Below the pieces are notes generated by a model. It did not search any database and had not been told where the DNA came from. It was given only the letters and a program-made list of their open reading frames with translations. A program made the position numbers and the translations under genes. A stretch of 63,044 nt of DNA from Psammoneis japonica (Eukaryota). Below, in pieces: positions 1 to 28,852 of this stretch. Every line of letters starts with the position of its first letter. The first letter of the stretch is position 1. The stretch lies in contig QPGO01000309.1 in assembly GCA_008632985.1 (NCBI GenBank), forward strand, positions 1-63,044. The letters are read 5' to 3'.

Positions 1-2064
1 CTTTGGTTGGTGCATCAGTGTGGCAAGTTTGTGCTTCTGTGTGATGCAGAAGTTTTTGTCACCACAGGTGGATTGAGTTTCTGTGGAGCTGTTTTGGTTC
101 CCATTGCAGTTGAAAATTTTCTGTCATGGATGGGCCTTTTGAAAGACTCCCTTTGGGTGCAGTTTGGGCACAACCCAGGAGTGCTTTTGGAGCATTCTGA
201 GAATGGCAAGAAAACAGGAATGATGAAATGTGTTTTTTGTTGAACAGCATCTCAGTTTTGGAGCTGTTGGAGAGTGTCATGGACCCCACTTGGTGTCAAT
301 CTGGCCTGGCAGTTGTGACACAACAGCATGACTCACAGCTGCCGCAGCTCAAAACTGTTGAGGCCATTGTTTTTCTTAGAAAAAAGGAAACCTGTTTTGG
401 CAGGTGTGCCTTTTGGCAATGTGTCCATCAAATCCACACAAGTTTTGCACTGCTGTGCCACACTTGGGCAGTTTCAACAGCAGCACGGTCACAGCGGCAC
501 ATCATCCACCCCAGCGGCTGATTGCATGGCTCCAAAGTTGACTCTCAGCATGAATCAGTGCATTTGAGAACATTCTTGGAATGCTGTTTGGAGCACTTTT
601 GGAGCAGCTTTGGTGCAATCTGCAAGAGAATCTTCAAAAAATTTGCTGCGCACAAACAGTCCCCCCAAAGGGGGCTTTTTTTGGTTTTGGCACTTGGAGT
701 CATTTGGCAGGGCTTGAATTTGAGATGGAGCATTCCTCAAAAAGTTGAGGGTGAGAGGGTCATGAATGACCCAACTCAAAGTTCTCATCACCAGGATTGA
801 AGCAAGCTTGGCACAGGTCCGCCAATTGCCACGTGAATGATCACGCAAAAGGCGCAAACCTTGAGGATGGATTTCTTTGAAACAGACACAAAAAACATCC
901 AGCACCATTCAAAATGAGATTTGTTGGGTTCTTCCTTGGCAAAAATGCAGAAAATTCAAACTTTTGCAAAATCAACAGAGGCTGAAGCTTTGGAAAGACC
1001 GCACTGTTTGAAAATGAGGGAGAAAACAAGTGAAAATTTGATTTTTCCTGCATCCCCCTGGGCTCCCCTGCTGGTCATTGTGTGGCATGGATTCAAAATG
1101 GTTTTGTGTGCTTGCGTGTGTGCATGCCACATTCCACCACATGATGCAGCAGTGGAGGCGCTGAAGAAAAGACTCAAGACTTTGACCATGGCAAGCAAAT
1201 CATTTGTGGCAGTGTCAATCTTGATGGTTGAGTGGCAACCACATCTGAACAGTCTTTTCAAACCCCATTGGAGGCATGTGGTGCAGTGCTTGCCGCTTGA
1301 ATTTTTCCTTCAGATGTGTTTTTCCCACCCACTGATTCTCATGCATTTTTGCTGTTGTTGCCTCCAAGTCAGCTGAAGGTTGTGAGTGCCTCTGTGACCA
1401 AAGCACATGAAAGGTTTGCACACTCATTGAATGATTGCTTCAATGAAAGCAGTGGTGTGGATGGAGTCACCTCCGGACATTTGTGCTGGTTGGTCATGTG
1501 CCGCCATGCTTTGTGCTTTTGTGTGGCAACAAAGTGCCACCAACTCTGGCAATTGCTCAGTTGCGACTTCATCAATGTTTTGATTTGAGAGGTGAGTGCA
1601 CATGAAATGTCTTGATTGATCCCATGGGAAGGATGTCAGTGGGTGATTGCCACTCAAGCTGTCAATTGTTGCACTTTTGCCAACCCTTTTTTTGCTCTCT
1701 GTCAAAGTTTCTGCCGCAGTTGCATCGACCGGCAATGCCATTTCCATGGCTCAAGTTGGAGTGCATCAGATGCAATTTTGCCTGTTCACTCTTGCACACA
1801 TGGAAGATGACAGGGTGAGGTGCTGTCTGGATTCTTGAGGTGGTCCCACATGAGCAGAAACAAACACAGATCCACCTGGAACTGGCTTGCCAGCTGCTCA
1901 ACTTGACAACCATGTCTGCTCAGGCTGCAAGAAGATTCATGACATGTTGTCATCAAACCAACAGTGCCTCATCATGAGTCCCCAAGTGCAGTGATTGTGG
2001 GTGATTGGAGCTGAAAGCAAAGTGCAACAAGTGTTTGAGATGCTGGAAGCTGTTGGGCTGGAGG

Positions 2065-2460
2065 ACTTTGCTTTGTTTTCACAAGGTGCTCTGGAGTCAG
2101 TCAACTCCACTTCAAGTTGGTCTGGAATCAGTTGACTCTGCTTTGCTTTGTTTTCACAAGGTGGTGGTCTGGAATTGGTTGTTTCCACTCCACTTCATTT
2201 CAGCAGGGTGGTCTGGAATCCATTGGTTGATGCATCACTTCACTTTGTTTTTGCAAAAGTTGGTCTGTGAATTGGTTGATTCTGCTTCACTTTTCATTTG
2301 TGTGAGGTGGTCTGGAATGTGTTGATTCCACTTCAGTTTGTTTTTGCAAAAGGTGGTCTGGAATGATTGGTTGATTCCTCCACTTTGTTTTTGCATGAAG
2401 TGGTCTGGAGTCTGTTGGTCAATGCTGCTTTGCTGCATTGGAAAACAACCAACTCTGCTT
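2065..2460. repeat. Degenerate tandem repeat, roughly 8 units of about 45-50 bp
   Basis: Recurring core (g/t)tggtctggaat..ggttgattc..cactt...tgtttt. Confidence 0.7.
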
Positions 2461-2819
2461 TGTCTCATGTTTGCAAGGTGGTTGGAAATCCATCGGTCCA
2501 TGCAGTGTCATTGCATTTTCATGAGTTGGGCCAAAAACAACCATGTCTGTTTTGCCTTGTGTTCAAAAGATTTTCATTTGCAAGTTGGGCTGAAAACAGC
2601 CATTTCCACCTTGCCTCATTTTTGCAAGTTGGGCTGAAAATGGCTGACTCTGGGTGTGATGTTCAGACACCTGGAGCTGGCATCACAAACAGCAAAATGG
2701 CACAACTGCAATTGATTGATTTTTGCAGCAAGCACCATGTTGGTCTCATGGCTGCTCCCGCAATTGCTGAGTTCTTTGTGTGTGTGTGTGTGTGTGTGTG
2801 GTTGGGTGGGTGGGTGGAT

Positions 2820-3225
2820 GATGGGTTCCAATTCTGGGTGGGACTCCGTGTGACATTGGGCACGCAGAATTCTGCGTGCAAGCTCCGCAGCAAATTTGTT
2901 GAGCAATGAAAATGTGAATGATCGCCAACAGAAAAAGAGGCAATTTCATGAACGTGTCTCCTCCTTCACACTTGCAGCACTTGCAGCACATCAATGACAG
3001 TTTGCATGGGTGGGTTCTGCAGACATTAAAGAACACACCCAGCACATTTTCATTGTCACAAATGTTGAAAATGGAAAGCCTTTGGCTTTGCAAGACAGGA
3101 AGTGTGAAACAATTTCATAGAATGTCACACGCAACCATCTGCGTGCACGACATGTGGCGCGATCCAAAAAACTGTTGATGTCACAGCTCAGCAGTGCGAG
3201 GTCCCACCTGGAGCTGGAATGCGTT
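2820..3225. mobile_element. MITE family copy A, inserted in a (TG)n/(TGGG)n tract
   Basis: Ends gatgggttccaattctgggtggga ... tcccacctggagctggaatgcgtt. Internal homology to copies at 19107, 19277, 46498 and 51324. Confidence 0.85.
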
Positions 3226-3329
3226 GGGTGTGGGTGTGCGTGTGGGTGTGTGGGTGTGGGTGTGCGCATGTGGGTGGGTGTGCGTGTGTGTTTGCAAACA
3301 TTGACCAGAGCAGCGGCCCATTGAAGACA

Positions 3330-3922
3330 AGTCATTGGACAATGCACATCTGATCACAGGGGTGCAACATGTTGGCTGAGCACACAGACATTCAAGCAAC
3401 GGCACAATGACAAACACAATTGGATGAATGACTTGTCACTCAGAGGTGACATGTGGAGGGGGTTCATGAAGGCAGCGAATCATGTCATTGACCCCCAAGC
3501 ATGCCTCCCACACCTGGCAAACCACAACAGGTTCAAGGCTCTGCAAGCGCAAGCATGGGCTGACTGCATGAGAGCCCACAACCAAGCACCTTCTGCGCCA
3601 GCTGCCTTCAATGGGGACATCATTGCCAAGTGGACAGCGTGCCTTGCAGAGTTGGAGCAGCTCAAGGCAGCAGATTCAGATGATGATGCCAATGCTGCCA
3701 CAGAGCTTGGGCACCCACATGATTGGCCAACCTTCCAGGAGCTGTTGGAGACCAAGCTTTGCCGCCGCCGCAATGCTGTTGCAGGTGCCCCACTTGTCTG
3801 CTTGACTGGGGAGCATGAAGCTGTCACCACGGACATGTTGACTGCCACCTGTGGCGCCATTGACAAGGACCTTGTTTACACCACCCAATTGGATAGAGCC
3901 CAGCACTTGCAGGACCACAAGC
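3330..3922 (+). pseudogene. Decayed gag-like fragment of an LTR retrotransposon (probably Copia/CoDi type)
   Basis: ORF 3424-4020 contains DWPTFQELLETKL..GAPLVCLT, resembling diatom Copia gag W..F.E.L....L...G.PL.Y with Y>C. Truncated by a MITE end at 3923. Confidence 0.45.
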
Positions 3923-3990
3923 AATGCGTTCCAGATGCAGGTGGGAATCCGTGTGACATTGGACTTGTTCCAGACTTAGGTGGCGCGCAC
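3923..3990. mobile_element. Truncated MITE end followed by a second related TIR-like end (gacttgttccagacttaggtgg at 3962)
   Basis: aatgcgttccagatgcaggtgggaatccgtgtgacattgg matches the MITE terminus. No partner end was found. Confidence 0.6.
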
Positions 3991-4953
3991 ATGTACATGC
4001 CCCTTTTCGCAGAAAAATAAATTTTTTATCCTTTATACAACAACGAATATATTTCATTAAATTGATCACATTAATGGCTTGGAAGTAAAACAAACAGAAT
4101 AAACTCGAACAAACAAACAGCCAAACCGGCCATGGCTTTCAGTGACCATGACGGCCCACTTTTTTCAGCCTTGTGGAAAATTGAATGTCATGACCAGGAT
4201 CTCCGTATTTGATATAGTCTGTGTCATCAACAACAATAGTGAAAATGCTTGTTGAAGGCTGCAGCGCGGCACAATAATGCTAAATCTGTCAACAACAACA
4301 ATTGAGCCTCAATTGTCTCACAATTTGCCTCTAAGGACCATTTCTTTTCAATTACCATGTATATTTCCTCAATATATTCGAATGATTCAAGTGTGTCAAT
4401 CGTTTATGCCTTTTAAACCGTGAAAAATGGTCCGAAGTCGACGCCATTGCGTGGGCTGAGCTACACTTCTTCTCACGTCGTCCTAAACTTATTAATCAAC
4501 GTATGCTTTATTCGATCCGTTGAGTGTAACTAGTATTTGCGTATTATAGCAAAATGTTAATTATGCTATGTTAAAGACTATATTTATATGTGTGAATAAT
4601 ATTTTACATGTTTCTTGCTACATGAAGGCACACATAAATCGCTCATCGGAAAAATTGAAAATTTGGGGAAAAAAAACGAACGACGACGACTCCTCGCATC
4701 AGCGCCTCGATCCTGCTATTTCACTTTATTCTTTTTGCAGCTCTTGTGCAATTACTCTCTCGATTCGTGTGCCATCTATCGTTGGCTTCCATTGCATTGG
4801 CGACTCATTCTTTTGTCACGTTTCAACGCAACCACACACTTGCACAAACAGCCCATTCTCTTCTTGCGCCTTTTGTGCTGCACCTCTTTGTTGTGCGTGT
4901 GTGCGTGGACGGGTTCGCACGTGATGCAATGCTCGGTGTACGTGATTGTATCA

Positions 4954-4962
4954 ACAGCAGCA

Positions 4963-4992
<30 letters not shown>
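4954..4992 (+). repeat. (CAG)n microsatellite immediately upstream of the LRR gene ATG
   Basis: cagcagcag... run ending at gcATG 4993. Confidence 0.9.
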
Positions 4993-4994
<2 letters not shown>

Positions 4995-7900
4995 GCAACT
5001 CGAAGATGCCTGCAGCCGTCTCCGGGAAAATGATCCCACATTGACAGTGCTCGATCTACGCCGCAACCAAATTGGTGACGCCGGTGCAATTGCGCTCGCA
5101 GCGGCACTCCAACACAACACTACATTGAGAAGGCTCTGTCTTGGCCTCAACCAAATTGGCAACGACGGTGTAAAAGCGCTCACAACAGCTCTCAAAACCA
5201 ACACGACATTGGAACAGCTGGAACTTCACGGCAACCAAATTGGCAACGACTGTGCAAGAGCGCTCGCCACGGCTCTCAAAACCAACACTACATTGAAAGT
5301 GCTCCATCTTGGGAACAACCAAGTTGGTGACGACGGTGCAAATGCGCTTGCAACGGCACTTGCAACCAACGCCACGTTCAAAGAGCTCCTTCTTTCCAAC
5401 AACCAAGTTGGTGACAACGGTGCAAGAGCGTTCGCAGTGGCACTCGAAACCAACACGGCATTGGAGTGTCTCGATCTTTGTTACAACCAAGTTGGTGACG
5501 ACGGTGCAAGAGCGTTCGCAGTGGCACTTGAAAACAACGCCACGTTCAAAGAGCTCCTTCTTTCCAACAACCAAGTTGGTGACGATGGTGCAAGAGCGTT
5601 CGCAGTGGCACTCGAAAACAACGCCACATTGAAAACGCTCGATCTTTCCAACAACCAAATTGGTGACAACGGTGCAAGAGCGTTCGCAACGGCACTCGAA
5701 ACCAACACGACATTGACACGGCTCAATCTTGGCTGCAACCAAGTTGGCAACGACGGTGCAAGAGCGATGCTGCAAATGCTGAAGCAACACAATCGGAGTT
5801 TGATGAGCTTGAACTTGCTTGGCGACATGTGCATTTCCGAAAATTTGAAAAACAAAATTGATGCGTTGGTGAAGCACAACATGAAAAAGACTCGAAATCC
5901 GACGCCTCGGCCATTGACTCGTACGTTGTTGCGCTTTTATGGTCTGAATGCTTTTATGGTGTGATTTTGTAAAGTACATGACAATGCAAAGAGTGTTTCT
6001 GACGCGACCTTTTCCCATTTTTATCTCTTTTTTTTTTAGGAGAAGAGTGCGCAGAGAAGAATTTGCCAATTTCAGCTCGCAACGGCGACTGGGAATGGCT
6101 GGCGGGACTCCTTGATGATGCTGTAAATGTGGGTGCAGTTGACAGTGACGGCTCGACTACACTTTACCATGCCAGTCAACAAGGAAAAGTGGAATCCGCA
6201 AAAATCTTAATGGACCGCGGAGCAAAAGTAAATGCCAGATGTAAAGGAGGAAAGACGCCTCTCATGGCTGCATCCAAGAATGGGCACGATGAGGTCGTCC
6301 AGCTGCTTTTGGATCATGGAGCTGATGCCGATCTTAAAGTCGGCCTGTTTCGCAAACAGAGTGCGCTCGACATGGCCGTACGAAAAGGCCATTCCCAAGT
6401 AGTTTCGATTCTGAAATAAGCGCGCAAGTCGACGCCAAAACCAGGAAAGACGAAAGGCAATGACACAGTGACTCGTACGTTGTTGTGTATTTTTTTTTTC
6501 GTTTTACCCCCGGAATGCCACTGTGGGGTTCTGTAAAGTGTAAAAATGCAAACGAGTGTTTCTCACACGACCTTTCCTTGATCCTCCTCATCTCTTGTTT
6601 GTAGGAGAAGCAGAAGAGCAACAACATTGTGAAGAAGAGGAACCACGACGACTTGCGCAGAAAGTCACAGAGCAACAACAGCGCCAAGAGGCGGCGGGAA
6701 AATTTCGGCTCAAGCAGGAAGCAGCTGAACAACTTCGCCGTAAACAAGAAGAGGAAGCGGGAAAATTGCAGCGTGAAAGCAAAGCGGCAGACAGTCACCT
6801 TGTCCAAGAATAGCAGCAGGAGCCAATAATTCGAAATCCATCGCCTCGGCCACAAATGACTCGTACGTCACTTTTTCGGTGTTGCTACCGGAATGCTGTG
6901 GTGTGACATTGCAAAGCATGAAATGCATGTGGTTTTTCTCATGCTGGCTTTCTATTTCTGTCGCTTTTTATAGGAGAACAAGTCGATGCGAGACGAGAAC
7001 AACTTGCACTCGACGAAGTCTACCGCCGTCTTCGGGAAAATGATCCCACATTGACAACGCTCGATCTTTCCAGGAGCGATATTGGCGACGCTGAAGCAGA
7101 AGCGCTCGCAGCGGCACTCAAGAACAACACCACATTAGAAGAGCTCATTCTTGAAGACAACCAAATTGGTGACGACGGCACAGCAGCACTCGCAGCGGTG
7201 CTCCAAACCAACTCCACATTGCAAGTGCTCTATCTTGGCAGCAACCAAATTGGTGACGAAGGTGCATGCGCGCTAGCAACGGCACTCGTAACCAACACCA
7301 CGCTGCGAGTGCTCCATCTTGGCGACAACCGAATTGGTGCCAACGGTGCAAAAGCGCTCGCAGAGGCACTCGAAACCAACTCCTCATTGCAAGATCTGTA
7401 TCTTCGGAACAACCGAGTTGGTGACAGTGGTGCGAAAGCGCTCGCAACGGCACTCAAGACCAACACCGCATTGCGAGAGCTCGATGTGTGGAGCAACCAA
7501 ATTGGTGACGATGGTGCCAAAGCATTGCTGCAGACGCTTCAACAGCACAATGGGACTTTGACTTACTTAGGATTGAATAGTGACGATGGCATTTCCGATG
7601 ATTTGAAAAGCGACATTTCGGAAGTAGTGAAACACAACGAGTACACAACTCGAAATCCGCCGCCTCGGCCAACGGTAACTCGTAAGTTGCTTTTTGGGTT
7701 TTCGGTTTGACAAGCAGACGAACGTAATGACTGATTCTTCTCATATCTATTTCATTGTCTTTTAAACTTGCATTTGTGCGATCGTTGAAGAGTCCCATCA
7801 TATCTTAGGCTTTCAGCCCAACACCACGTTGGATCGGAGCGGTTATCGGACAAGTTGGCTATCTCCGGGGAATGCTGAACTCGATGTCGGCGATTTGTTG

Positions 7901-9961
7901 GTGAGCTCCGCGACAGCGGAGTCCAGAGGGCCCTCTGGCTCTCCCTCGAAAGACCTCCCATTATTTTTTCTTTCTCACACTTCTGGGATAGACAGCGGCA
8001 AGGAGGAAATCATTCGTCCAACCTACTGGTTGCTGACGAAATATCTAGAGCTTCCGGTCTTTTTTGACGAAGCCATCCCTGTTGGGCAAGATGTGTTGTC
8101 ATACAGGAGGAAGGCGGCCAGCGAATGCACACATGCGATGGTCCTCCTGTCACCACGCTATCGGCAACGTAGGTGGTGTGTCAAAGAACTCAACACTTTC
8201 ATGAAACGACGGCAGAATGCTGAACGCCCGCTTTCGTTGGTGCCTGTTACATGGGGTTGGGAGACGGATACGGGTAGGCGAGACAGCTTGGAAGGTTACG
8301 CAAATCAGGTTCGGGACTTGGCTTGGATTCAGCCAGAAACCCCCGACGCTGCGCTCTTCCTTGTCAATACCCTTTGGCCCCTTCTAATCCAGCTTTTCAA
8401 TCTCTCCGTGGAAGCGTCGATTGAAGATTTACTTGTTCAGTACGCGGAAGAAAACAGAGGAATATCTTCCATCCCGCTCAGTCTAGAAAGTTTTGTTCAA
8501 GCCCGGTTCCGTTTCGCAAGAAAATGGACCAAGCTGCCATCTCCGGTTACCCCAAGAGTTGCATGTGGTGTGGCTCTTTGGGGGGATTTCAAAATCATTC
8601 TCGTGGGTGGTCAGAGGAGGAAGAAAGCAGCTGCTGTTACCGAGTCTTTGCAGGCACTCCGATCAGTCGAAGTGTTTGATGCGACCACGCAAGAGTGGTC
8701 TGAACTTCCGAGCCTCCAAACTTCTCGATATCACTGCTCCGCGGTAGTGGTGGGAGAGTTTTTGCATGTGTTCGGGGGCTACGATGGCTCGGTCACCCTC
8801 AATGATATGGAGGTTTTAAGCCTTCGAGGTATCGATAGCCAATTTGAGGTGGTCAACGGATATCTGCCGGAAGGACGGCGCCAAATGGGTGCTCTTGGAT
8901 TCGAGGAATCAGTTATGCTATTTGGCGGACGTTTGAACCCTTTCGGAACCAATGCATGGCTTGCGCAGGTTCGAGATCGAACTGTGGCGGCTCTAGACAG
9001 CTTGACCTTGGGGCGCGCTTGTCCCGTTGTTTTGCCACACAAAACCGATGTTTTCGTAATTGGAGGGCAAGGCGAAGACGGGACCTGGCTCAGCTCGGTT
9101 GAAGTCTATGATATTCTCACGAATAGTCGTAGTAGCAAGAAAATACCAAACATGCCAATAAGCGGAGAACGCGTTCTCAGTGCGTACGTTAAGGAGGAGG
9201 ATGGCAATAGTGCGCTTGTCATTCATTTCGAACGAGGTGTCTATACTTTTGACTTTCGGGAATCAACCTGGTCTTCAGAGGTAGAACAAAAATGGTGGGG
9301 CGGTGGAAGAAAAATTGACCAATGCGTTTATTCTGATGCACAAGCCTGTCTCGTTTGCGTGAATGCCGCTGCGAATCTTGAGTTGTTTAAGTTACCAGAA
9401 GAGATCCATCAAGATGACTTGTACTCAACGGCGCTCATCGGCGGTAGCCCCAAACCTGTTGGTGAGCTGAGCGTTGATTATGTCTCCGACCCAGGCAAGG
9501 CGTGGCCCATGAGGAAGAGCAACTGCCGCCCGTTGGTCTATCTTGCTCATCGTGGGCCGGATGCGAAGAAGGATATCGCTGGACCGATTTGCGATCATCT
9601 TGAAAAGATTCACGGCGTTGATGTCTTCTTTGACGAGAAGAAAATGCCAATCGGCGACGACAAAATGCACACGCTCGTTTCAAAAGCACATGAGTGCACT
9701 CACGCCTTAGTGATACTTTCTCCAACATTTCGTGAGAGTGAATACTGCGTCAAAGAGCTAAATACCTTTATGGCTCGCTGGGAGAAAGGTAACGGGTTCC
9801 GCCTCTTTTTGTCTCTGTGGAATGTTGACGATGTAGATGGATACGCCCCGGTGGTGAACGACGTGATCGGTCATAGAGTTGCGGGTGCAAACAAGGTCCA
9901 CTACATAGTGTCTTTGTACACCAAGCTCGAGGAGTTTCTGCCAGCTACCACCAACTGGTAA
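4993..9961 (+). CDS. Five-exon LRR(RI/NLRC3-like)-ankyrin-coiled coil-LRR-TIR-Kelch-TIR gene. Exons 4993-5920, 6040-6474, 6605-6862, 6974-7681, 7809-9961. In-frame stops in exon 2 (TAA 6417) and exon 3 (TAG 6811).
   Basis: GT..AG introns join all ORF-track pieces in frame (all phase 1). 28-aa LxxLxLxxNQIGDxGA repeats. Ankyrin GKTPLMAASKNGH. TIR motifs FFLSH..VFFDE..LSP..WCVKEL and YLAHRGPD..VFFDE..LSP..YCVKEL. Kelch GG/W repeats. Confidence 0.85.
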
Positions 9962-10624
9962 GCACAAACAACGCAGCAACTTCGATGTGTCCGTTCTGAA
10001 CAAAGAATTGAAAAAGCGAACCAATCGGGCCATCAGGTTCCTCTGTGGGAAGAAGAAGAGGGCAGCACCAGTCTTGATGTTCGCATTCACGGTATGGTAT
10101 GTTGTATCGTTTTCTGGTAAGTCACAGCAATCACTCCTTCTTAGCGTTTATCGATTCGGTTGCCGCTAATTCATCCTGCTACATGGCATTCTCAAAAGGT
10201 AGAGAAAGGCATTCCTGGTGGATATTGGTAATCCGGGAGATTCAATTTTCAATTTGCCAAAGGTAAAAATGTTCCTGGTTGATTTGTACACTGGGAGATT
10301 TTGAGAATGGAGTGGGACTTGTCCAAGAGATTGACAGAGGCGGATGCCGTTCTGACCACGGGAGAGTTGGATAATTGAGTGCCATTTGCGGTTCTAGTTC
10401 GCCACTCAGACCAAACTCGTGTCATCTGAGAGTTAAAGGGATGACGGTGTATTTCTAAACAGACAGGTCTGCTGTAGCTGCTGACAACGCTGTGTCCGTT
10501 TTCCATCTACCTTGTACGTAGTGGTGTGGCCTTGGTTTAGAGCAAGCTTTACGCTTTTCTACGTAAACACGAAATAGCTGTTTCCACGTGGAATTCTACT
10601 TGTCTTTTGGGCTGTAACAATGGC

Positions 10625-13600
10625 ATCACGGTGTGATGGTCCTCTCGAAGCCATCAGACAGCCGTCCAGCACTCTTCCGCCACATCACATGGCTAAACCT
10701 GAATCCATTCCTCAACTCCCTCCCAGAAACACATGAGCTGTGCTCCCCGTGCAACAAAAGGAGCATGGGCATCAAAGAGACTCCTCTCATCTTGGAGAAC
10801 TTGGCAACAACAGCAGTGAGCCTTGTGTCTCTCCAGCATGGGAGCAATGACCCTCTCCAATTCCCACTCATCATGCCACTCAGAGTTGTGCTGCACCCAG
10901 TTGCCATGGGCACATGTTGCTCCACTTCTTTGATTTTCACCACACCCCCGCACATCTGCAAGGTGTTGGCTTGCACGCAAAGCCAAGGATCCTGACACCA
11001 TTTTGTGGAGCAAAGCTGTGCACAATTTGATTGCGAAAAACAGCCAAAAGCAGCTGAGATCAAGATTTCCACCCTTTTCTGTTAAGAAATGAGGGCCAAA
11101 GTGTCCACATCCAATGCCCAAGCCAAGATGCTCCTGGGCATGACTTGGGTGTCTTGTTGCAGTCTCTCTTGACTGAGCTCCAAAGAAACATTTTGAGGGG
11201 TGGGAGGCTCCCTCTGAGGACTGGGTGGCGGATTTGATGTGGCAGCATCAGTGCTGCTCTCCCTCTGAGATGTGTTTGAGACTGTCCAGGGACTCAGTGG
11301 AAGACTCTGGTGGAAGTGGAGTCAAATTGTTGGGAGCCTGTGAGCCACAGGAGGGATCAAGGCATGCAAATGTGGTGACGATGTTGCTGGGGAGGCTGGA
11401 GGCATCAACTGGTGTCTCCCAAAAAGGCCAGTCAGCTCTGGGGACCCCAGCTAGAGTTGAAAAGTGATCCATTGACAAAAACCTGCTCTCTTCATGCTCT
11501 CTGTCCAGTCTGAATGATTTCATTTGCGTTGCCACCTCAGAAATTGCTGCTTGTCACAATGACCAAATCTCAACACACTTGGCTGCAGAAGAAGCAAGTG
11601 AGCTGTTTTGTGGTTTGGCACCAAATGGTTTGTTGCACAAGCCCAGCACAGAACTTCAAACCAGCAACAACCCCATTTGGATGAAAAAATGTTGCTTCAA
11701 CACGTGCAAGGAGCGGTGGAGAATTCTCTGCCAAGCATCCAAAGCTTTGACTGAGCAAAAAAATTCCTAAAAACACAAAAGATCTGAAGAAGCATGAAAT
11801 GAAACAAAAGCATCAGAGCCATTGAAAAGCAGCTGGAGGAGCACTCAGAGCAAAAGCCCAGCCACATGCTCCACGCTCCACTTTTCCTTGCCAACTGAGA
11901 GAAATCACAGTTGCTGCGCTGGAGATTGTTGAGCTGCAGCAACATGTTGATCCCAAGTGAGCAACAATGTGTTCTCTGCCACTTCAACATTTTCCCCCCT
12001 TGCACTCTTGGACCCCAGCACCTCAATTGTGTTTTTCCTCGAACACCTTTTATCCAGCAAATGAACACTTAAAAAAAAGGGGCATTTCAAGAATGATCAC
12101 AAAAATGCTGCTGTTCACTGCAGAAGCAAATCAAAAAGAAATCATGTGTGGTGTGAATTCCAGCTGCCTTCTGCTTGGTGGTTGAGAAGCTGATGACCAA
12201 AGCAATGGAAGCAGGAGATGTGGAAGACTTTGAGTCTTTCTCCACATTGAAAGTTGTGTGCCAGGGGGTTTGGTGCTGACAAAGGAGGTGATCTCATTTG
12301 GTTTTGTTGGCTCCAATTGCCCATTGTTGCAAGGATGGCAAAGCAGCCCATTTTGTCATGCTGCAGCACTTGCCATGGTGGAATGGGTTGCAGTGTCACA
12401 GCTTGCCAACTGGCAAACACTCTTCACAACTCTGGTTGGCTGCACCTCTCTTTGGGCCTTGTGACAGATGGCCTTTGCACACTGTCCCACACTTGTGTCA
12501 AAACCCTCAACATCTGCAAATTGCAGGTTTCACTCTGTGTCACACCGTGATCACATTGCTTGCCCCAGCAGATTGCCTTGTCCTTCTGAAGTGGTTGCTC
12601 CTGACAGATTCTTGAGCTCTTTTGGCTTGCACTCTTGACACCAGCACCCACACCTCCAGCCTGGACATTCTTCTGACATGCTTGCCAAATTTCCTTGTGG
12701 TTTCTGTGCATCCATCTGCCTGTCGACCCATCTGCAACATGCATTGTTGTGTGCATTGCATGTGTGCATCCTTGTGGGTTCATGCAAAGGACAGATCAGT
12801 CACACAGAATTGACCAGATGTCAAAAATTGCAGGTGTGGTTGTGTGATGTGATGTTGAAATCTTGTGTGTCAATGTCAATCGCACCTGGACATTCTGTTG
12901 TCACAATTGCATTTTCCGAAAGGCCTTTTGTCTGTGGAAGCAGTGCAAAAGCTTCAGGCCATTGAGAGCTCATTTGGAGAAACCCAAAATGATTGAGTGG
13001 AAATCAATCTCACAATTTTCACTTTTCACACTTCTTCTGCTTTTGTTTGTGCTCTTTCTTCAAGCACAGTGCACATCTCTTCAATGGCATCATGCACCCG
13101 CTCCTTTGAATCTTTTGTGCTTCTGTGCTCAGTTGCACACTTGCCCATTTTGTCCCAGCCATGCACAGCCTTGCTGTGACCTCTTTCAGCAGACCCCTGC
13201 AGCCACCAGACAGCATCAAGGCCCTCCAGAGACTCTTTCTTTTCCTTTGAACAGCGCCAGTCACTTTGAGCATGTGCCAACACTTTTTGGCTTTTGCGTT
13301 GGAGCATCATGGCTTGTCAGCTGGTGTGAACTCTGTCTTGCTGACCCTGAGCTCACCATGTGGCTTGCAGACACATCTCAAATGCTCTCAACCGCTGTTG
13401 TCATGTGAGCACAAGTTGCGCAACTCAACTTGAGTTGCAAACATGAGTTTGCCATGTTGTCAACAATCATCAACATTTTTTTCAATGTTGTCTGTCTGTC
13501 CTGCAAAAACCACCACTTGTCTCAACGTTCCAACAGAACAGGCCAGTTCTTGAAAAAATGGCACAAGCTGTGGAAGCTGTTGCAAAAAAATGGTGCACAC

Positions 13601-15340
13601 AGAAACTTGCACAAATGCCAAAAACCAGCCCACTCTGTCTGAAGCTGGAGCCTCACATGCCACAAAAAAACTCTGACCCACTTCTCTGTGCGGGCGTGGG
13701 CAAGCTTTGCACTGCAGAAACAAGAAAAACCAAAATCTAATTTTAAGTGCTGTTGCACCTTTGCCCAGCAACGCTGGCGCCGGCCAACCCACACTTCCAG
13801 TGCACCCCACAAAGGGTGTGGCAGAAGATCGTGCGATCAGTCGGTCAACACGCCGCTGTGCAGCGACGCGCACCAGAGATAAAAGGTCAAGGAAAAATTG
13901 CACCAGAATGAGATCATTGCTTTCTTTTGAAGAGGATTTAATGCACCCAAACTGCCACAGCAAAAGACAATCACGTCAAGTAGAGAATTCAAGTCAGCGC
14001 AAACTCTTGTCAACAAAGACTGACAGAATTTACAGCTGCATGGACCAGAACAACAGCACGCAGTTCACTGCGTGGAACAGTGATCTTGGCAGGCCAGCAA
14101 GTAGAAAAGGGGATGTTCAGGACTGGCAAGGATGAAACAGGAAGTCTTGCTGATGCAACGAGAAGGTCGTCAGAAGAAACATTGTTCTCGCGCACAATTG
14201 ACACTGAATCTTGCATGGAAAAGCCGATCTGCGCAGCAAATGGACGGTCGTCAGGTGATGCCGATGGTTTGTCCATGTGAACACTTGCAGGCGCCACAAC
14301 AGGGACAGTGCTTTCATGACAGAAATTGAAGGCAAATGGCAAGAATTCAAACAATGACTCCTCACTGCTGTCTAAACAGCAGATGAGTCTCCGCTCAGAG
14401 ACCGTCACAGGAGCCGAAAGACGTGCAAGTCGGCATGATTGGGCCACTGTTGTCATTCTTGTGAGCCGTGTGGCTCGAAAGCAAACTGCATCGCGCGTTG
14501 CGCGGGGAACTAAAAGCACACATGATTGTGTGTGATGAGCCAATTAAAGTCTTGTTCAAATCTTGTCATTTCACCACATGAGGTGAAGAACTTGAGCAGC
14601 CAGTGGAAGCAAAAAAGAAATTGTTGGGGGCTTTCGGGTGTGGTGGGAAGTTGATCGCATCAGAGACGCAATGACAGTTGGTGTGCAAAAAAATGCCAAA
14701 CAAGACAACAAGCATGCAAACCATGAGATGTCGACGCCAGTCGTTTGTGGAAGGGGCCAAAAGGTTGACGGGGGACCTGGTGAAACGCCATCTGAAAAGG
14801 GCGACATCAGTGCGAGAGCATGCGCAGAAACACATGCAGGGGCTGCCAGTGGGTGCTCACGTGAAAAAGTGCACTGCAGAAACAAGAGATGCCATGAGTG
14901 CAGCAAAAGCATGAGAAAACACTCCTCAGATTTGCTGGCATTTTCCTCAGAGCATTGAAAACATTGTGCGCTGGCAAGGCCCAGGTGATGCGTGGAAGGT
15001 GCAGCAACTCACATCTGGCCCTGGGCACTGAGCTGGCTCACACGGATTTGCAGAGGGGGTGAGAGCGCAAACCGACTGAGCTTGCACAGAGAGCACGTGC
15101 CACCTGGAAGCCAAGGAGAGCAGAGCTGCTGAAGTCAAAAGTGTGCAGAGGAAAACCTGCACAAAGTGTTTGCAGGGTTGGTTGATCTTGTCTCTGATGT
15201 GCCAACGCACACTTCCCTTGTCTTCAAAAGAAGAACGTCCCAGCCAACTGGCCAGAAAACCAACCGCAGCCAGTCAAAACAACTTCCACACACACGGTGG
15301 AAGCTCGCAACAACTCCGATCGCTGGAATGACCCGCCAAA
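10625..15340. other. TpA-depleted decayed domain 2; original content not identifiable (boundaries approximate)
   Basis: Sharp loss of TA after ~10620. The 13.8-15.3 kb part keeps many CpG yet is still TA-poor. Confidence 0.8.
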
Positions 15341-15577
15341 ATGTCGGATAATGACTCGGACATCCGACCGGACACATGACTCCTCCACCCAAAAACTAAT
15401 GTCACACCGTCAAATAACGTTCCCGAACACCTGCTTTCCGTTGTCGTAAATTTGTACCAAAACGACACCAACGCGCACCGCACCTCTCACGCCTTTCGAG
15501 CAGATTACCCGGAGGCCCCATGGCGAACGCTACCCGCCAAAAATACTAAGAGGTGGTTGCTGATCATCATCATCATC

Positions 15578-16772
15578 ATGGGATTGTTGGGGAAGCGATG
15601 CGTCCGGATCGCCGTCACGTTGATTTTAGTGCAGACAGCACATCTTGCTTCTATTCAGCTAGCATATCTTTTCCGCTTCAGTCTTTCGGACCTTCGTGAT
15701 GATGAGCAATACGACGTAGCTGCGATTGTGAATTCGAACGAGAAGGTTCAGAATTTAAACAATAAAGAAAACAGAACGTTGGTGATTTTAATGGGAAACT
15801 TGCGATGCGGTGAGCTTGCATGGGAAACCCTTTACAGAAATGTGTTGGATGTCAATTCAGCAGATCTGGCTCTCTTTACGCAAGAGCCCCCACCGCAATA
15901 TCAAAACGCATCCATCCTAACGAGAGCAAAGTATGTGTACAAATACCCCAAGTACGATGATTGGGCCGATGCTGTGGACTTGATAAATGGGACGGCATGG
16001 CGTGGACGTTTGTTCCCAATCTACAACAGGCAGAACATTGCGCTTGGAGGCATGGGAAACTTGAGAGGGAGCGGTACAATCATTTTCATGTATCGATGGT
16101 TCATCTCACAACGCATCCAAGAACTTGAATGGACGAACAAGTATGATCGCTTTGTCATTTCACGAACAGATCATTACTACACGGCCCCTCATGATTTGTC
16201 GGACCTTGATAATCATCACATGTGGGTGCCAGCAGGAGAAGACTGGCGAGGAATATGTGATCGGCACTTGGTAGTAAACTCAACCTCCGTCTTGAAAGCT
16301 CTTAATGTACTTCCACCCATTATTGAAAACCCCGAAAAGTTTAAAGCGCAACTCTCTGCGGAGTTGGCTACAACTCGGAACAGCTGCTCGAGGTACGCTG
16401 GGGACAAGAGGGGCTCATGGGTTCCGTGAAGCGTTTTCCACGAATGATGTTTATTTGTGGTGTTCCTGGAGACCAAGTCGGAATAAATCCCCTCCAAACC
16501 ATGACAGAAGAGGGAGTGCAACCCAAGTACAGGGGAGAATATGCCCTTGCCAAATCAATAAGTGAGAAGCAATTCGACTGTGGATGTCCTGGGAGTTGCA
16601 GTTTTCTTTCACTGAGCAAAGTCCACGGAAAATGCCGTTTTCGTGCCTAGAGAGGATAAAGTATATGATGAAACAGCACGAGATGAGTCAGAATGCATCT
16701 TGTACTCATGCGGCAGATTCAGGAGCTTGTGGACCCGAGTGCAATCCGAGAAATTGTGTCGCAGCAACGTAA
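15578..16772 (+). CDS. Putative glycosyltransferase-like type II membrane protein with C-terminal Cys-rich domain, copy 1. Two -1 frameshifts (~16360, ~16631): pseudogene or consensus errors.
   Basis: Colinear with the intact paralogue 23622-24809. N-terminal hydrophobic anchor, YDRFVISRTD motif, CGCP..C..C domain. Confidence 0.75.
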
Positions 16773-17099
16773 ATTTTGAATAGTGAAGAAATTAAAAATA
16801 TATCAAAATGGCGGCCGCAGCACTCTACACACTCGTGTCCAAGCAGAGACAATCTACAAATCGGCAGTCAGAACACTCGAAGAAAACCATGAATGTGACT
16901 GGCTTTAATATTGCTAGTATTGTTGGTTGGTTCTCTCGCTGAAGAACCTCTCAAACAGTGTTAGTTACAATGATTTCTCAATCTAACGGTTGGTGCGAAC
17001 GGCTACGGTACACCGCACTCACGCTGTATTTTAACTGTAGGCTCAGTCAAGGCAGCTCCTGTGCACGTAGCACTGTTATAGCAAATTGCCGAACAAGTA

Positions 17100-18335
17100 T
17101 TACATTTCTTGTTTGACTTTTGTGAGCAGGTCATTTTCATGATTCACCACCGTAACTGTCGTGTTTGCGTACATGTGGTAGTAACCAAAGTCACCAAACT
17201 GCAGTTCTTTGCCTCGCTTTGCCATGATAATGTTCTTTCCTCCAAAGAAGCTTGCTACTTGTGAATTTCCACCCTGGACACTGATAAAGCGCTTGCACAA
17301 AGCGCCCAACGAGAAAATCATAAGGTTGACCGCTTCCGGATCCAAATCATCCACTAGATCATCCAGGAGTACCACACTGCCATTCGGGACAAATTCGTTT
17401 CGAATCATTTCCTTGTCTCCAAAGGTAATGTTTTTATCATCAGCTTCCACGAGTTCCTTACGTTGCAGTCGATTGTATATTACATGATAGTTGGGTACCA
17501 GATAGTTTAGAATGTCGCGCAATACAGGAATCGGAATGAAATTCACCGTTCCACCCACATGCGTCTCGGGAGTATACTTGTTAAAAATCATAACCAGTGG
17601 TTTGTCAAGTTGAACGTCATCTCTGTGATAGAATGATTTGTAATCTGGCATGGTCCAGTTGGACTTTGGGAAATCTTTGAGTGGTCTATGAATGGTGAAA
17701 CCAAATGGATTTCCCGGGGGAGTGTCATGGCGTTGCGCTGACGACCTTTATAGATGGAATGGTTAATGAAAACCAATACAGATAGGTTGTGCCTTCAAGA
17801 CCCCATGTTTCCACCGGACAGTACAAGCTCGTGTCGTACACATGTTGCACCACTGCACCAATCTCATACCCGAATTCTATCATGACAAAATAGAAAATAT
17901 TCAAAAGGTGAGTGCCATATACTGCAGTGTGAGAAACACATCTTGTCGCAAACACGTTGAATATATGATAGTTACTCGGTCGACAACAACAGCATACGTA
18001 CCTCCTTTAAACATTCCAATTTTACACACCTTCTTAGTTCCGGTAATTATTCGTAGGGTATGTCTGTAGTCTTTGATTCGTTGGTCGATCCGAGCTTGGT
18101 AGGATTGGAACTCATCTCCAGCAAATGGAAGGATCCAGTCTGGTAATAACGGCTTGGCGGCAGTCTCATTACGAGGCAATTCCAATCGATGATTGTCTGA
18201 TGTGCTCATCATCATCAACGAGGGCTGGTATGACCACAGCCACGATAGCTCCAAACACAAAAAGGCGAGAAAAACGACTCGACAACAGAGACGCTTTCCT
18301 CCGCGTAATCGCACCTCATTCTCGTTTGCGGTCAT
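17100..18335 (-). CDS. Uncharacterised glycosyltransferase-like protein (GEFGYE family), copy 1. Intron 17877-18001; two -1 frameshifts (~17770, ~17718).
   Basis: Splicing gives KG|EFGYE. Colinear with paralogue 25113-26449. Motifs WTMPDYK, NKYTPE, FISVQGG. Confidence 0.75.
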
Positions 18336-19106: not shown

Positions 19107-19903
19107 GACGCGCTCCAGCTCCAGGTGGGATCTCGCACTGCTGGGCTGTGACATCAATGGTTTTTTGGATTGCGTCGCATGTCACGCACGTGCATTTCCA
19201 TGTGTGACATTCTGCGAAATCGTCTCATGCTCCCTGTTTTGCGAAGCCAAAGGCTCTCCATTTTCAACGCTTGTGAGACGGGCTCCAGTCCCAGGTGGGA
19301 CTTTTTGTGACATTGGGCCCGCAGAATTCTACGTGCAAGCTCCGCAGTAAAATTGTCAAGCAATGGATGTGTGAATGATCACCAACAGAAAAAGAGGCAA
19401 TTTTGCGAACGCATCTCCTCCTCCACACTTGAAGCACATTCTTTGCAGCATGCCCAGGTGTGTTCTTTAGACACCAAAGAACATGCCCAGCGCATTTTTA
19501 TTGACACAAGTGCAGATGACAGAAAGCCTTTGGCTTCGCAAAACAGGCAGTGTGGAACAATTTTTTGTGGTGGAACATGTAGAAATGTGCGCGCAAAACA
19601 TGCGACGGATGACAAAAAATGATTGTGTCACAGTTCAGCAGTGCGAGGTCCCACCTGGAGCTGGAACACGTTGTGAGAATGAAAATGCGCTGGGTGTGTT
19701 CTTTGATGTCTGAAGAACACACCCGGGCAAACTGTCAGTGATGCGCTGCAATTGTGAAGGAGGAGATGCGTTCATGAAATTGCCTCTTTTTCTGTTGGCG
19801 ATCACACATGTTTTCATTGCAGTGTGAATTTGCTGCGGAGCTCGCACGCAGAATTCTGCGGGCCCAATGTCACACCGAGTCCCACCCAGGACTGGAACCC
19901 GTC
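19107..19903. mobile_element. MITE copy B (outer), interrupted by copy C
   Basis: TIRs gacgcgctccagctccaggtggga / tcccacccaggactggaacccgtc, flanked by direct repeat caaac. Confidence 0.9.
19277..19672. mobile_element. MITE copy C, nested in copy B in the opposite orientation
   Basis: TIRs gacgggctccagtcccaggtggga / tcccacctggagctggaacacgtt; TSD gtga. Confidence 0.9.
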
Positions 19904-22900
19904 CAAACATGCAAAGCGGACATTTTTTGCTTGACAACATTTTTGTGACATGCCATCAATTGTGCCATCAAGCTGGCTCGTGCAGGGGTCTGAATGGTCA
20001 GACACAATTTTGTGAGATGTGTCCCAAAACTTTTCCAATGGCTGCCCCCCTGGCCAAATCACGATTTTTTTCTTGTCCCCCCAGCCCCGCCAATGAGAAT
20101 GGTGGCACGCACATGATTTGCAAAGTAGCCGCCATGCTGACTCAACAAGCATGACTCAGTTTCAGTGTGAATTTGTCACAGGTGTGCCACAGCCAGAAAC
20201 AGTGGAAACCACCATGCCATGGCGACTCTGCAGTTGCCATTTTCTCAATGGCGGCATCATGACCTTCAACAGCGACAACTGTCAACAGCATGTTGTGCAT
20301 CACATGAACCCATGTGTGGGTGGGAAAATCAATGTGGGACAGTGCAGCGGGCTTGTTGTCGACTCATGCGGTTGAGAAGCAAAAGGGAAAAAATTGAAAA
20401 TTTCAGCTCCTTTCTCTGCAAGCATCAGATTTCAAACCACAGCGAGGCTCGCACATGTGACACGAATCATGATTCATCAGAACATGCAAGTGTCTTGCTG
20501 AGATTGTGGTTGTTGATGGAGCACATTGAGTTTGCTGCCACCGCTGTTGTTGTGTTTCGACAAGTCAAGAAAAAAATTAAAATGCCCAACATTCGTCATG
20601 CTTGAAGATGTGCAACTCACCACAGGTTCTTCACATTAAACAGCTCATCATGTGCAGAGCACACACACATTGTTTGCCTCACAAAATGTGGCAGACAGAC
20701 AGTGCACTTGTGTTTTTTGCTGTGCATGACGTGCATTGATGACTTGACACAAACATTGGGCTTGCCACCAGAAAAAAAGCAAATCAACATCCAGCCCAAA
20801 AAAAAACAGGTGGGCTCACAAAAAAAGCCCTGCACTTCCATTTTGATCTTTGGGCCATCTAACCCAATGATCTTGGGCTCAAATGACTTTGACACTTTTG
20901 GTGCAGCCATGCACAAGCTGGCCATGAGTCCCACATGGCAGCAGAGTTTCAGATGGGTCAAAGGACACCAGGGTGCAGGACCATTTCACACCCCAAATGT
21001 TGGTGGGTGGGCCTGGCTCCACAGTGTTTAGATGGAAAACTTGGCCAAAGCAAGGCAGCAAGGAAAAGCCAAAGGCCATGAAAATGACCACTGCTCCCGG
21101 TTGCCCTCAAGACAAAATGAAGCCAGTGGCTGCATGCGGCGTGCAACAGAAAGCATCAGAAAAAATTGCTGCACAAGTGGGGAACATGGCCCCAGCTGTG
21201 GGGGCTGAAAGAATCATGCTGCAAAGGCAGGAGATGCCACAACCTTGGCTTGGAGAAATTGGCATCAAGCAGAGCTGCAAGAATGCAGTGTGCCTCCCTC
21301 AAATTGTTCTGCATTGTTTGACACATGCTGCTTCAACCTGGTCATTTGTTTTGCGTGTGAATTCAGCCAAAGTGGATGGCAATTAAAAGTCATTGTGCAG
21401 TTGTTGTTTTTGCCAGCAATCACAGCATGTTCTCCACTGGCTGTCTGGAGCTGCAACTCAGAAATTGTGGCCCAGCATGCAGTCAAGAGCTGAGGAAAAA
21501 CAGAGGAGTCATGTCAGGCCAACACTTGGATGTGGCATTTTCCAGATGTCAGGAATGTTTCCTGGCACACCAGGTCTCAGCACACAACTGTCATTGTGGC
21601 ATTGTGTGCTGGCACCAGGTGCAGTCATTTCTGATGCCAGGGTGGATCCCCCAGTTGCTGACATTTCAAGTCATTTGTTGCCATGATTCGGTTCTTTGAG
21701 CAACAGTTGGTTGAGATGGATGATGATGTCACAATGGCTGCCAATGTCAGGAAGCACTGACAACATTCAAAAAGTTTCAGTCACAGAACAACAGCCACAA
21801 CACTCCATGAAAATGAGAGCACTCAAGTGTGTGAAGCGATTGGAGCACAGTCTGCAGCAGGTCAACATTTTGCAGCAATGCTGTGCTGCGGTGTGCTGTC
21901 AGAAGCAAGGGTCAGCCAGCACCAACGTTGCTGGGCAAAGGTGTTGACAGCACTCACAAACCAAATTTGTTTTGTTCTGCATTGGGTTGACAACCCACTT
22001 CCATGTGAACATGCAGATGATGTCAGAAACAAGCAGGCGTGGTGAAGGGCTGCAGCTCACTTAAATCTTGGCAAGTTGGGGCCACAAGAGACTGCCCCAT
22101 TTGACTTGAAAACAAGCTGGTTCCACCATGATCTCTCATCACATCAAAAAATTGTTGCCTGTTCTTTGCAGCGGCTGACACTTTCTTGTCATGAGGCTGG
22201 AAGTCTCACAAACTTTTTCAAGCTTCTTTTTGGCCAGAGTCAATGAAGAACAATTGCCCAATGTGGGCAAGATGTGCAAAAGACATTGTTTTTGAGACAT
22301 GGCTTGCTTCTTGAGACCATTTTGTTCCACTTCTTGTTGTGTCAGCAGCAACACAGCTGGCAGTGTGGTGCTGCAATGCTTGGTGTTGTGGCTGCAGTTG
22401 GTGTGCAGTCAAATTGCTCTCTTTGTGGTCTTCCATTCCTGGCATTGTTTGTCCCTGTTTCAACCCTTAAAAAGCATCAACAAGAAAGAAATGATGTGCT
22501 CTGCATCGTGGGAGAAGCTTGCAGCTCATCCTCGTCATGAAAATCATCTGGAGAGGTTGCTGAGCTCACATGTGTGCACTGCGTTGCAGTGCACTGTCTG
22601 CCCCACATTTGGAAGAGTGGTGGTGCCAAACAGAAAAGGATTGGCACCTTGTGTTGGCTTGCCTCCCTGGCCATGGCTGGCAAAATCCAACTGACCAAGC
22701 TTGGCAACCAAGCTTGCTGTGAAAAGCGAGTCAAAATGCGCCAGCACTTGCAGAACATGTGAGCGCAGCTCTTCTGGCCAACCAGCCATGTGTCCTGCAA
22801 GGGCTTGGTGAGCAGGTGCCCAAGAAGTTCCTTGCAGTGCTGGTTGGAAGCCAGTGTCATCAAACTCCATCAGGGCAAACTGGCCCTGGCGAGATTTTCA

Positions 22901-23621
22901 ACAACAGCGCAGCTGGTTGGGTGCATGAAAACCCAGCCCAGCAGCTGCATCTGATCTTTGCTGGTGGCGCAAGGTGCGCAACAGTGTGCGACAACTGTCA
23001 GCAGCCAGAAATGACAAGATGCTGCTGCAACCCAGCCATGCAATGTGGCTGGGCCATGCCTTGGCTGCCCTTGAAGGGGGGGGCATGAAGCTTTTGTTCA
23101 TTGCCTCGGCATGCTGATCTTGGTGTGGGGCCCTTGCTGCAGAGGTGTGCAGCGGCATTGGCAGCTCAGAGTGGCTGGCACTTCAAGCTGGAAGCGCTGG
23201 CACCTGCTGCGGCACAGGCACAATGTTGGTGTTGGGCGGGGCTGCTGCCTGGTCTGGATCATTGCTCTGCCCTCGTTGAGCTGCCGTGGTTGTTGTTGTG
23301 GCGGTGCACTGTTCACTGTCCTCGCCACAAGTCTTCTTCTTGGGAGCACGACACAGCAGCTCTTGGTTTGCTCTTCGAGAGAATGAGAGCGATGAAACTC
23401 CACAGAACAGCAGCCGTTGTTCCTGTGCTCGCGCAAGCTCGTTCAAATTGTTTGTTTGCGGTGACGATGACCCTGACAACGGCCGGAGGGTGGGTCATTT
23501 CGACTCGTGACTCGCTCGTCGAATCATTCCACGAGGTGGATGAGTGATGCGGTGATGGGTGATGGCGAATGGCAAAATGTGACCCTGCCAAAAAGAGGGG
23601 TGATTAGATTGGCCAATCATC

Positions 23622-24809: not shown

Positions 24810-25112
24810 ATTAACATGAGGTAAAATTATTGAATATTGCAAATTGCGCCACCACAGCACTCCGCACACTCGTCCAGGCAGAGGCAATCTACAATCTTTA
24901 GTCACAACACACGAACAAGACCACGACCGTGACTGGCTTAAATTTTGCTAGTACTGATGGTTGGTCCGCTCACCGAAGAACCTCTCCAACAGGGTTAGTC
25001 GCAACGATTTCTCAATCCGAAGATTGGTGCGGACGGCTACCTCACGCGCTCACGCTGTATTTTACCTTTAGGATACCTTTCTGCAGCTCCGGTGCCTTCA
25101 GCACTGTTACGA

Positions 25113-26449: not shown

Positions 26450-26699
26450 TTTCCCTCGAAGCGAAGGTTTGTTTCTCTTACAGCAATGGGTCCTTTCAAT
26501 TAGACCGCTCTCATTTCAATTACAGTAATGGGAAGTATCGCGTGAGGAAAGCAACAAGTGCTTCGGCAATGATCGAAAAAGTGACCTGCGAAATGCCGTT
26601 GAACGCGCGGTGATGGAACAGAATACCGTTGAAACGCTTGGTCGCGGATCGTGTCCCGCGCGTGCGTTGAACGAAACCGCGCGCACAACATCACAATGA

Positions 26700-28840: not shown

Positions 28841-28852
28841 TTCTTAGGATAG
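28520..28852 (+). pseudogene. Small membrane-protein-like ORF (110 aa), apparently TpA-mutated
   Basis: Hydrophobic helices plus an acidic loop. No Tyr, with Cys at positions where Tyr would be natural (DACDEDDCSD, FCLFCAF). Confidence 0.4.

Follow-up and report, generated by a model that had tools for sequence, protein, structure and literature searches.

How does a single gene come to hold domains of unrelated families between splice junctions that look like copies of one another? The question is raised by a locus in Psammoneis japonica, on contig QPGO01000309.1 (assembly GCA_008632985.1), of which a stretch of 63,044 nucleotides was analysed (positions 1 to 63,044 of the forward strand; from here on, the window). 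It contains a predicted gene of five exons, which encode, in order, leucine-rich repeats (LRRs), ankyrin repeats, a long charged helix, a second set of LRRs and a TIR-Kelch-TIR module; exons 2 and 3 each carry an in-frame stop codon. The explanation put forward here, to which we give about an even chance of being right, is that this is one spliced gene built by symmetric phase-1 exon shuffling, through repeated copying of the junction around new domain exons.

The gene lies on the forward strand, and the coordinates, phases, lengths and counts of its exons and introns, as first set out in an annotation made from the letters alone (hereafter the sequence-only reading), were all exact on recheck (Table 1). 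All four introns are in phase 1, each junction splitting an arginine codon after its first base; exons 1-4 close with ACTC/GT (the slash marking the splice site), exons 2-4 open with GAGAA, and the three internal exons are symmetric (1-1), their lengths all multiples of three. Each Pfam match is confined to a single exon: LRR_6 to exon 1 (E 6e-55, eight stretches) and to exon 4 (E 1.1e-38), Ank_2 to exon 2 (E 2.8e-28), and TIR_2 (E 5e-22, two stretches), TIR (E 2e-14) and Kelch to exon 5. Exon 3 matches no Pfam family; the predicted fold of the 68 residues ahead of its stop is one continuous helix, spanning residues 2-67 with a mean pLDDT of 89.8. Pfam thus bears out the cargo labels of the sequence-only reading for exons 1, 2 and 4 (LRR, ankyrin, LRR); its 'coiled coil' for exon 3 is reasonable given the model, but it is safer to call it a single long charged helix. 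Neither a STAND-type NTPase (NACHT, NB-ARC and the like) nor a ROC-COR domain is matched by Pfam in the five exon translations, and the gene is thus not a nucleotide-binding LRR receptor (NLR).

The likeness between the junctions reaches into the introns. Local alignments of the trimmed intron bodies, with the splice consensus removed first and 500 shuffles as reference, give z-scores of 14.4 for introns 1 and 2, 9.4 for introns 1 and 3, and 3.6 for introns 2 and 3; blastn inside the window aligns the same introns at E values of 1e-7 to 9e-9. To judge from these alignments introns 1-3 are homologous, which bears out the mutual similarity seen in the sequence-only reading. The homology continues upstream into the exon, as a proline-rich linker: the 22-nt linker core TCGAAATCCNNCGCCTCGGCCA is matched three times in the window (at 5892, 6831 and 7650), versus 0.01 matches expected and a count of three in 0 of 100 shuffles. 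The linker of exon 3 is identical to that of exon 1 at 20 of 22 positions, and exon 2 ends in a degenerate copy; the linker is therefore found in three of exons 1-4, as had been said, together with the shared exon ends and starts. On the downstream side the homology comprises GAGAA plus one or two bases, no more. By these boundaries, the repeated unit is a junction of ~160 nt (a linker of ~31-35 nt, the intron, and GAGAA), not an exon-plus-intron block. The gene has three complete copies of it and a partial fourth one, at intron 4, where blastn matches of 42-56 nt span linker and donor.

Within this homologous frame the cargo differs, as the sequence-only reading had it: the Pfam domains are of different families, and neither the interior of exon 2 nor that of exon 3 resembles the other, or any of exons 1, 4 and 5, above shuffle levels. 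Both interiors have coding character. Under a codon-usage model trained on three other open reading frames (ORFs) of the window, the score peaks, among the six frames, in the frame imposed by the junctions (27.2 bits for exon 2, 32.2 bits for exon 3), and the four introns reach at most 3.5 bits in any frame. The ankyrin ORF of exon 2 is unbroken and strongly matches its family, even though identity between the flanking junction copies has dropped to ~60%, which points to past purifying selection. The two LRR exons are 59% identical in amino acids and 74% in nucleotides over 225 codons (dS 0.40, dN/dS 0.73); on this measure exons 1 and 4 are true paralogues, so that at least one step in the making of the gene would have been a segmental duplication.

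The history proposed here would run as follows. A core protein would have had an LRR sensor of RNI type at its N-terminus and a TIR-Kelch-TIR module for output, connected by a short linker rich in proline; a phase-1 intron would have followed this linker. The ~160-nt junction would then have been copied repeatedly, with the second LRR exon, the ankyrin exon and the long-helix exon now lying between copies, recently enough for the flanking introns to stay recognisably alike; the outcome would be a gene with freely combinable internal exons. The existence elsewhere of a relative in which an LRR_6 cap is followed by a TIR domain (protein P0068) counts in favour of this history.

The same relative can be read differently. 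P0068 has the same LRR cap, then K-T-R-E, then TIR, and at that point the gene studied here reads KTR-NPTPRPLTR-E, as if a segment had been inserted into a continuous ORF. Introns 1-3 might then be three insertions of a mobile intron-generating element (an introner), with ~33-36 nt of it exonised as the linker. The near-identical splice contexts and common intron sequence would follow from such an origin; linker plus GAGAA has a length divisible by three (33 or 36 nt); the diatom-type genes of the window are otherwise intron-poor (ORFs of 853 and 453 amino acids are unbroken); and the available part of one report (PMC12130899) describes introners in diatom-lineage algae, namely Thalassiosira oceanica and a Parmales species. 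We nevertheless hold this origin to be very unlikely. The element would have left no other copy in 63 kb with several genes; the intron ends carry no terminal inverted repeats (all four inverted pairs are located within exon 4), and the junction listing shows by eye no consistent target-site duplication; the copies are just 57-62% identical; the stops right before the linkers would go unexplained; and the paralogy of the two LRR exons calls for at least one segmental duplication step in any case.

Two further candidates around the junctions were set aside. The region 5' of the exon 1 ATG, suspected by eye to be a relative of the introns, shows no intron-like homology, 149 to 430 of 500 shuffles scoring as well as the real sequence. 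No Rfam family matches within the gene at E up to 1, and the three junctions share a weak consensus fold (-10.2 kcal/mol across 188 columns), so that nothing here argues for a structured or selector RNA. A (CAG)n run at 4956-4992 abuts the exon 1 ATG, and an in-frame ATG at 4924, 23 codons above it, would add MQCSVYVIVSTAAGSSSSSSSSS; either may be the true start.

The stops in exons 2 and 3 are single, a TAA and a TAG, and the frame is open again after each. Both come late, just before the linker (codon 126 of 144 in exon 2, codon 69 of 85 in exon 3); by simple arithmetic, two uniformly placed nonsense hits would both fall so late about 3 times in 100. In the seven Pfam-backed ORFs of the window (exons 1, 4 and 5, a CHAT-STAND-Macro ORF, a transporter ORF and two TPR ORFs; 3,080 codons in all) there are 0 in-frame TAA, TAG or TGA codons, as against 90 TAA or TAG in the other two frames, which makes a variant code with TAA and TAG as sense very unlikely. 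TAA terminates exon 5, at about the position where its best homologue P0011 ends, as well as the CHAT-STAND-Macro and transporter ORFs. TAA and TAG are true stop codons in this organism. Alternative in-frame donors that would bypass the stops amount to just weak chance GT sites.

The two stops might still be unreal in this particular gene, as assembly or base-calling errors, as alleles of a single haplotype, or through readthrough or reassignment, in which case all five exons would be constitutive and encode a protein of ~1,493 amino acids. One base change would remove each stop, the frame is open behind both, a TPR array elsewhere in the window possibly contains an indel error, and the assembly may be imperfect, to judge from a perfect 484-bp tandem duplicate at 31636-32603. 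We consider this improbable, since the codon counts make reassignment very unlikely and three ORFs end regularly in TAA, since substitution errors would hardly yield exactly two late stops, and since the degenerate linker after the exon 2 TAA fits a real and older stop. Past that TAA the linker has drifted and the donor ACTC/GTACGTTGTTG is perfectly preserved, a combination that fits an old stop with splicing retained.

A gene in decay would offer another account of real stops: a once constitutive LRR-Ank-helix-LRR-TIR-Kelch-TIR gene, without regulated isoforms, would have received two nonsense mutations, and would now be either a recently formed pseudogene, in a receptor family subject to birth and death, or a gene that always skips exons 2 and 3 as relics. 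This account is to be taken seriously, though we think it unlikely. There is one stop in each of the two exons, with the frame reopening behind both; the TAG stands in the context GAA TAG CAG CAG, a single transition away from CAG, with a linker behind it that is still nearly that of exon 1; lengths in multiples of three would matter solely if the exons had been read through; the neighbouring TPR array has a 1-nt frame break; and the dN/dS between the two LRR exons fits as well. Against it stand exons 4-5, which are free of stops and frameshifts over 952 codons and match the homologue P0011 from end to end; the unbroken ankyrin ORF, which still fits its family strongly between junction copies that are 57-62% identical; and the position of the two stops, each within the final fifth of its exon and just ahead of the linker. 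The drifted linker behind the exon 2 stop, with its preserved donor, suggests an old stop in an exon whose splicing was maintained. If the locus should be a lone decaying gene, it is merely a neat curiosity.

Several observations weigh against exon shuffling through a copied junction. The body of intron 4 has no detectable relatedness to introns 1-3 (z -1.3 to 1.4), and the common intron/linker frame claimed in the sequence-only reading thus stands for introns 1-3 and shrinks at intron 4 to the linker and about the first 17 nt. In a three-way global alignment introns 1-3 are 57-62% identical in every pair, so that the order of copying is unreadable; a nested order of duplication with introns 1 and 2 closest, which the local scores had suggested, was dropped for this reason. 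Blastn and a scan with the linker core find no further copy of the junction unit in the remainder of the window, and the linker motif occurs in 0 of 282 fetched related proteins, so that the locus may be a one-off. (A metagenome scan with the linker core gave 61 loci, all of them single matches of 22-33 nt without protein similarity to the gene, which are attributed to chance.) With its CAG-run context and the intact linker behind it, the exon 3 TAG looks more like a point mutation of recent date than like a stop by design, and two stops in 229 codons, together with the frameshifted TPR array, fit decay or assembly error equally well. The splice junctions are themselves predicted from the sequence, and no simple single mechanism accounts for an exchange of cargo in which the junction is kept.

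If the gene was shuffled in this way, its exons would combine as follows. Because the internal exons are multiples of three with identical splice contexts, any subset of them would join in frame. Exons 1, 4 and 5 joined give an open LRR-LRR-TIR-Kelch-TIR frame of 1262 amino acids, just as the sequence-only reading had derived from skipping the two stop-bearing exons. Since exon 4 has no methionine codon and exons 4-5 are intact, we infer that translation of the full protein would begin in exon 1 and pass directly into exon 4, leaving out exons 2 and 3. With exon 2 included, translation would end after the ankyrin repeats, in a 435-aa LRR-ankyrin product; inclusion of exon 3 without exon 2 would yield a 378-aa LRR-helix product. 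Both inclusion forms may equally be transcripts targeted for decay, their stops lying far upstream of the last junction. An in-frame ATG stands at 6854-6856, behind the TAG and two codons before the exon 3 donor; for a transcript begun within exon 3 or close to it, this codon could in principle serve as the start of the exon 4-5 frame.

The output module has many relatives. An exhaustive protein search with exon 5 gives 7,944 matches with E values of 0.001 or below, many of which have just one TIR in common with it; word-based searches among proteins of near or greater length returned only distant matches, of at most 31% identity. Among the listed matches the full-length relative of exon 5 is P0011 (743 amino acids), with 45% identity over residues 22-710 and, at its N-terminus, a hydrophobic stretch where this gene has LRRs. 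Partner domains were scanned in 45 of the 150 listed matches, picked for having their best match within a TIR region, and they vary: Kelch (P0011, P0014), TPR_10/12 (P0057), WD40 (P0060), an NPHP3_N NTPase with WD40 (P0065) and LRR_6 (P0068). The TIR module thus appears promiscuous in this lineage, which fits a shuffling family and is silent on the junction unit. The second TIR domain (TIR2) matches sequences of known structures in the Protein Data Bank, namely the bacterial NAD hydrolase AbTIR (E 1.4e-7), to which it is closest, and the plant TIR receptors Roq1 (E 1.8e-3), L6 and RPS4. The glutamate of its CVKEL motif aligns with that of NYEL in AbTIR, and this aligned residue of the ...EL motif would be the putative catalytic one. 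By its domain make-up the protein is a candidate for immune-type signalling through NAD cleavage, with no STAND NTPase.

The gene sits in an island of normal composition (3894-10615), in a window of which about half (31.4 of 63.0 kb) consists of blocks nearly without TA dinucleotides, alternating sharply with normal gene islands. The longest TA-free runs are 2,650 bp, and a 17.8-kb sample of the blocks has relative abundances (rho) of 0.01 for TA, 0.22 for CG, 1.86 for CA and 1.78 for TG. Between repeat copies within the TA-poor blocks, CA versus TG is the commonest dinucleotide difference (38 such differences over 2,330 aligned bases, where normal repeats have 4 over 3,318), as if each copy had resolved an ancestral TA or CG independently. 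In an ORF-based Pfam scan of the blocks, none of 64 ORFs matches a protein family at E < 0.001. Mutation of TpA to TpG or CpA has been shown by mutation accumulation for viral DNA integrated in Bigelowiella natans, according to the accessible portion of that report (bioRxiv 10.64898/2026.01.13.699255); the TA-poor blocks resemble such TpA hypermutation, which here appears to be saturated and to occur in a stramenopile. They may alternatively reflect a base-calling artefact at modified bases.

Other features of the window include an unbroken ORF of 853 codons at 42863-45424 (reverse strand), with CHAT, a STAND-type P-loop NTPase (weak matches to nSTAND3, NACHT and NB-ARC) and Macro; it is a second immune-type gene, 33 kb from the one studied here. 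A TPR_10/TPR_12 array at 56747-58445 (reverse strand) extends over two ORFs, with a break near 57650-57690; read by eye, one nucleotide seems to have been deleted there by comparison with the adjacent repeat unit, which suggests a pseudogene or an assembly indel and not an intron. The segments 31636-32119 and 32120-32603 form a perfect (100%) head-to-tail duplication of 484 bp, either very recent or an artefact of assembly. A dispersed 2.6-kb duplicate (15572-18147 and 23616-26147) is 82.7% identical, each copy overlapping an ORF with a weak, sub-threshold match to DUF7796. The best named relatives of a TMEM184/Ostalpha-type transporter ORF are all from diatoms (Thalassiosira, Cylindrotheca, Skeletonema, Nitzschia, Epithemia and Striatella), at 53-65% identity.

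Table 1. The predicted gene and the TA-poor blocks of the window.
Feature	Coordinates	Strand	Length (nt)	Content
Exon 1	4993-5920	+	928	ATG; RNI-type LRR_6 array and cap; linker TRNPTPRPLT; phase 1 end ACTC/GT
Intron 1	5921-6039	+	119	GTACGT...TAG; in homologous intron set
Exon 2	6040-6474	+	435	phase 1-1; GAGAA start; ankyrin repeats; TAA 6417-6419; degenerate linker; ACTC/GT
Intron 2	6475-6604	+	130	homologous with introns 1 and 3
Exon 3	6605-6862	+	258	phase 1-1; GAGAA start; charged, Q/E/R-rich long helix; TAG 6811-6813; intact linker IRNPSPRPQMT
Intron 3	6863-6973	+	111	homologous with introns 1 and 2
Exon 4	6974-7681	+	708	phase 1-1; GAGAA start; second LRR_6 array; linker TRNPPPRPTVT; no Met codon
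Intron 4	7682-7808	+	127	GTAAGT...TAG; likeness to other junctions limited to linker and first bases
Exon 5	7809-9961	+		TIR, Kelch propeller and second TIR in one 717-codon exon; TAA end
TA-poor blocks	1-3893, 10616-13743, 14032-15396, 19500-23670, 26625-28844, 35116-42337, 46909-49319, 59127-63043			plus smaller blocks

Gene and surroundings can be joined in a bolder proposal, to which we give a slim chance: the ~160-nt junction would be a genome-wide socket common to many LRR/TIR genes, within which domain exons recombine and from which splicing picks alternative heads (ankyrin, helix or LRR-TIR) for one LRR sensor, alongside a TpA-directed hypermutation defence that erases TA between the gene islands. 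If true, this would amount to a somatic-free, splicing-based diversification of receptors in a unicellular phototroph.

Exon shuffling through a copied junction is best judged beside the systems that it resembles. The flanking introns share one phase, the internal exons are multiples of three and an exon holds a complete, independent domain, all of them marks of exon shuffling through symmetric introns. According to Patthy, the multidomain proteins of animals were reportedly assembled by modular exon shuffling via phase 1-1 introns, and the likeness lies in complete domains encoded by symmetric 1-1 exons within a phase-1 intron. The present case differs in being found in a unicellular alga and in domains of cytoplasmic type (RNI-LRR, ankyrin, TIR); in the classical cases, moreover, intron homology is said to have long vanished, whereas in this gene it can still be seen. 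As a rule, exon shuffling is inferred late, from intron phases alone; with introns alignable on both sides, this locus could show how a domain exon enters an intron, be it by junction duplication, by recombination between paralogues or by a mobile intron.

Alternative cassette or poison exons have been shown by cDNA in TIR-NLR genes of plants, tobacco N and Arabidopsis RPS4 among them. As in these genes, inclusion of an exon would here bring a premature stop and a truncated receptor beside a full-length TIR protein. The plant isoforms are established from transcripts and those of this gene are wholly predicted; the plant exons encode no separate folded domain, and NB-ARC has no counterpart here. 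To the TIR NAD hydrolase AbTIR and the plant receptors Roq1, L6 and RPS4 the gene is tied by the match of TIR2 and its aligned ...EL glutamate; it departs from them in a tandem TIR-Kelch-TIR arrangement behind LRRs, with no NTPase and an enzymatic activity that is predicted by sequence. The immunity of diatom-lineage algae is almost uncharacterised, and searches of a literature collection on diatoms with exon shuffling, and on diatoms with TIR and LRR, yielded no description of such a gene. The locus would be a first structural hint that these algae build, and perhaps vary, TIR immune-type receptors by exon choice.

Introners, as far as the available text of PMC12130899 describes them, likewise give several introns one sequence and one splice context; the present set differs in numbering three copies in one gene (within the window), in having no inverted ends, and in a homology that reaches ~31-35 nt into the upstream exon. 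Closer in lineage are the candidate immune receptors of brown algae, which are also stramenopiles. In the accessible parts of the reports, the LRR-ROCO genes shuffle single 72-bp LRR-repeat exons of phase 2 among like repeats (PMC11378527), the NB-ARC-TPR candidates have one TPR repeat per exon, and alternative exon combinations are proposed, and annotated in Ectocarpus (PMC3341825, PMC11378527). The sequence-only reading was reminded of these genes, and the comparison is apt for the symmetric, in-frame exons and for an LRR sensing part in a candidate immune receptor. It is loose beyond that, in that the brown-algal genes, so far as those parts go, shuffle single repeats and not whole domains. 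The gene of P. japonica has two stop-bearing exons and neither ROC-COR nor NB-ARC; its exons, of 258-928 nt and in phase 1, encode whole domains from different families, and the introns that flank them are still homologous.

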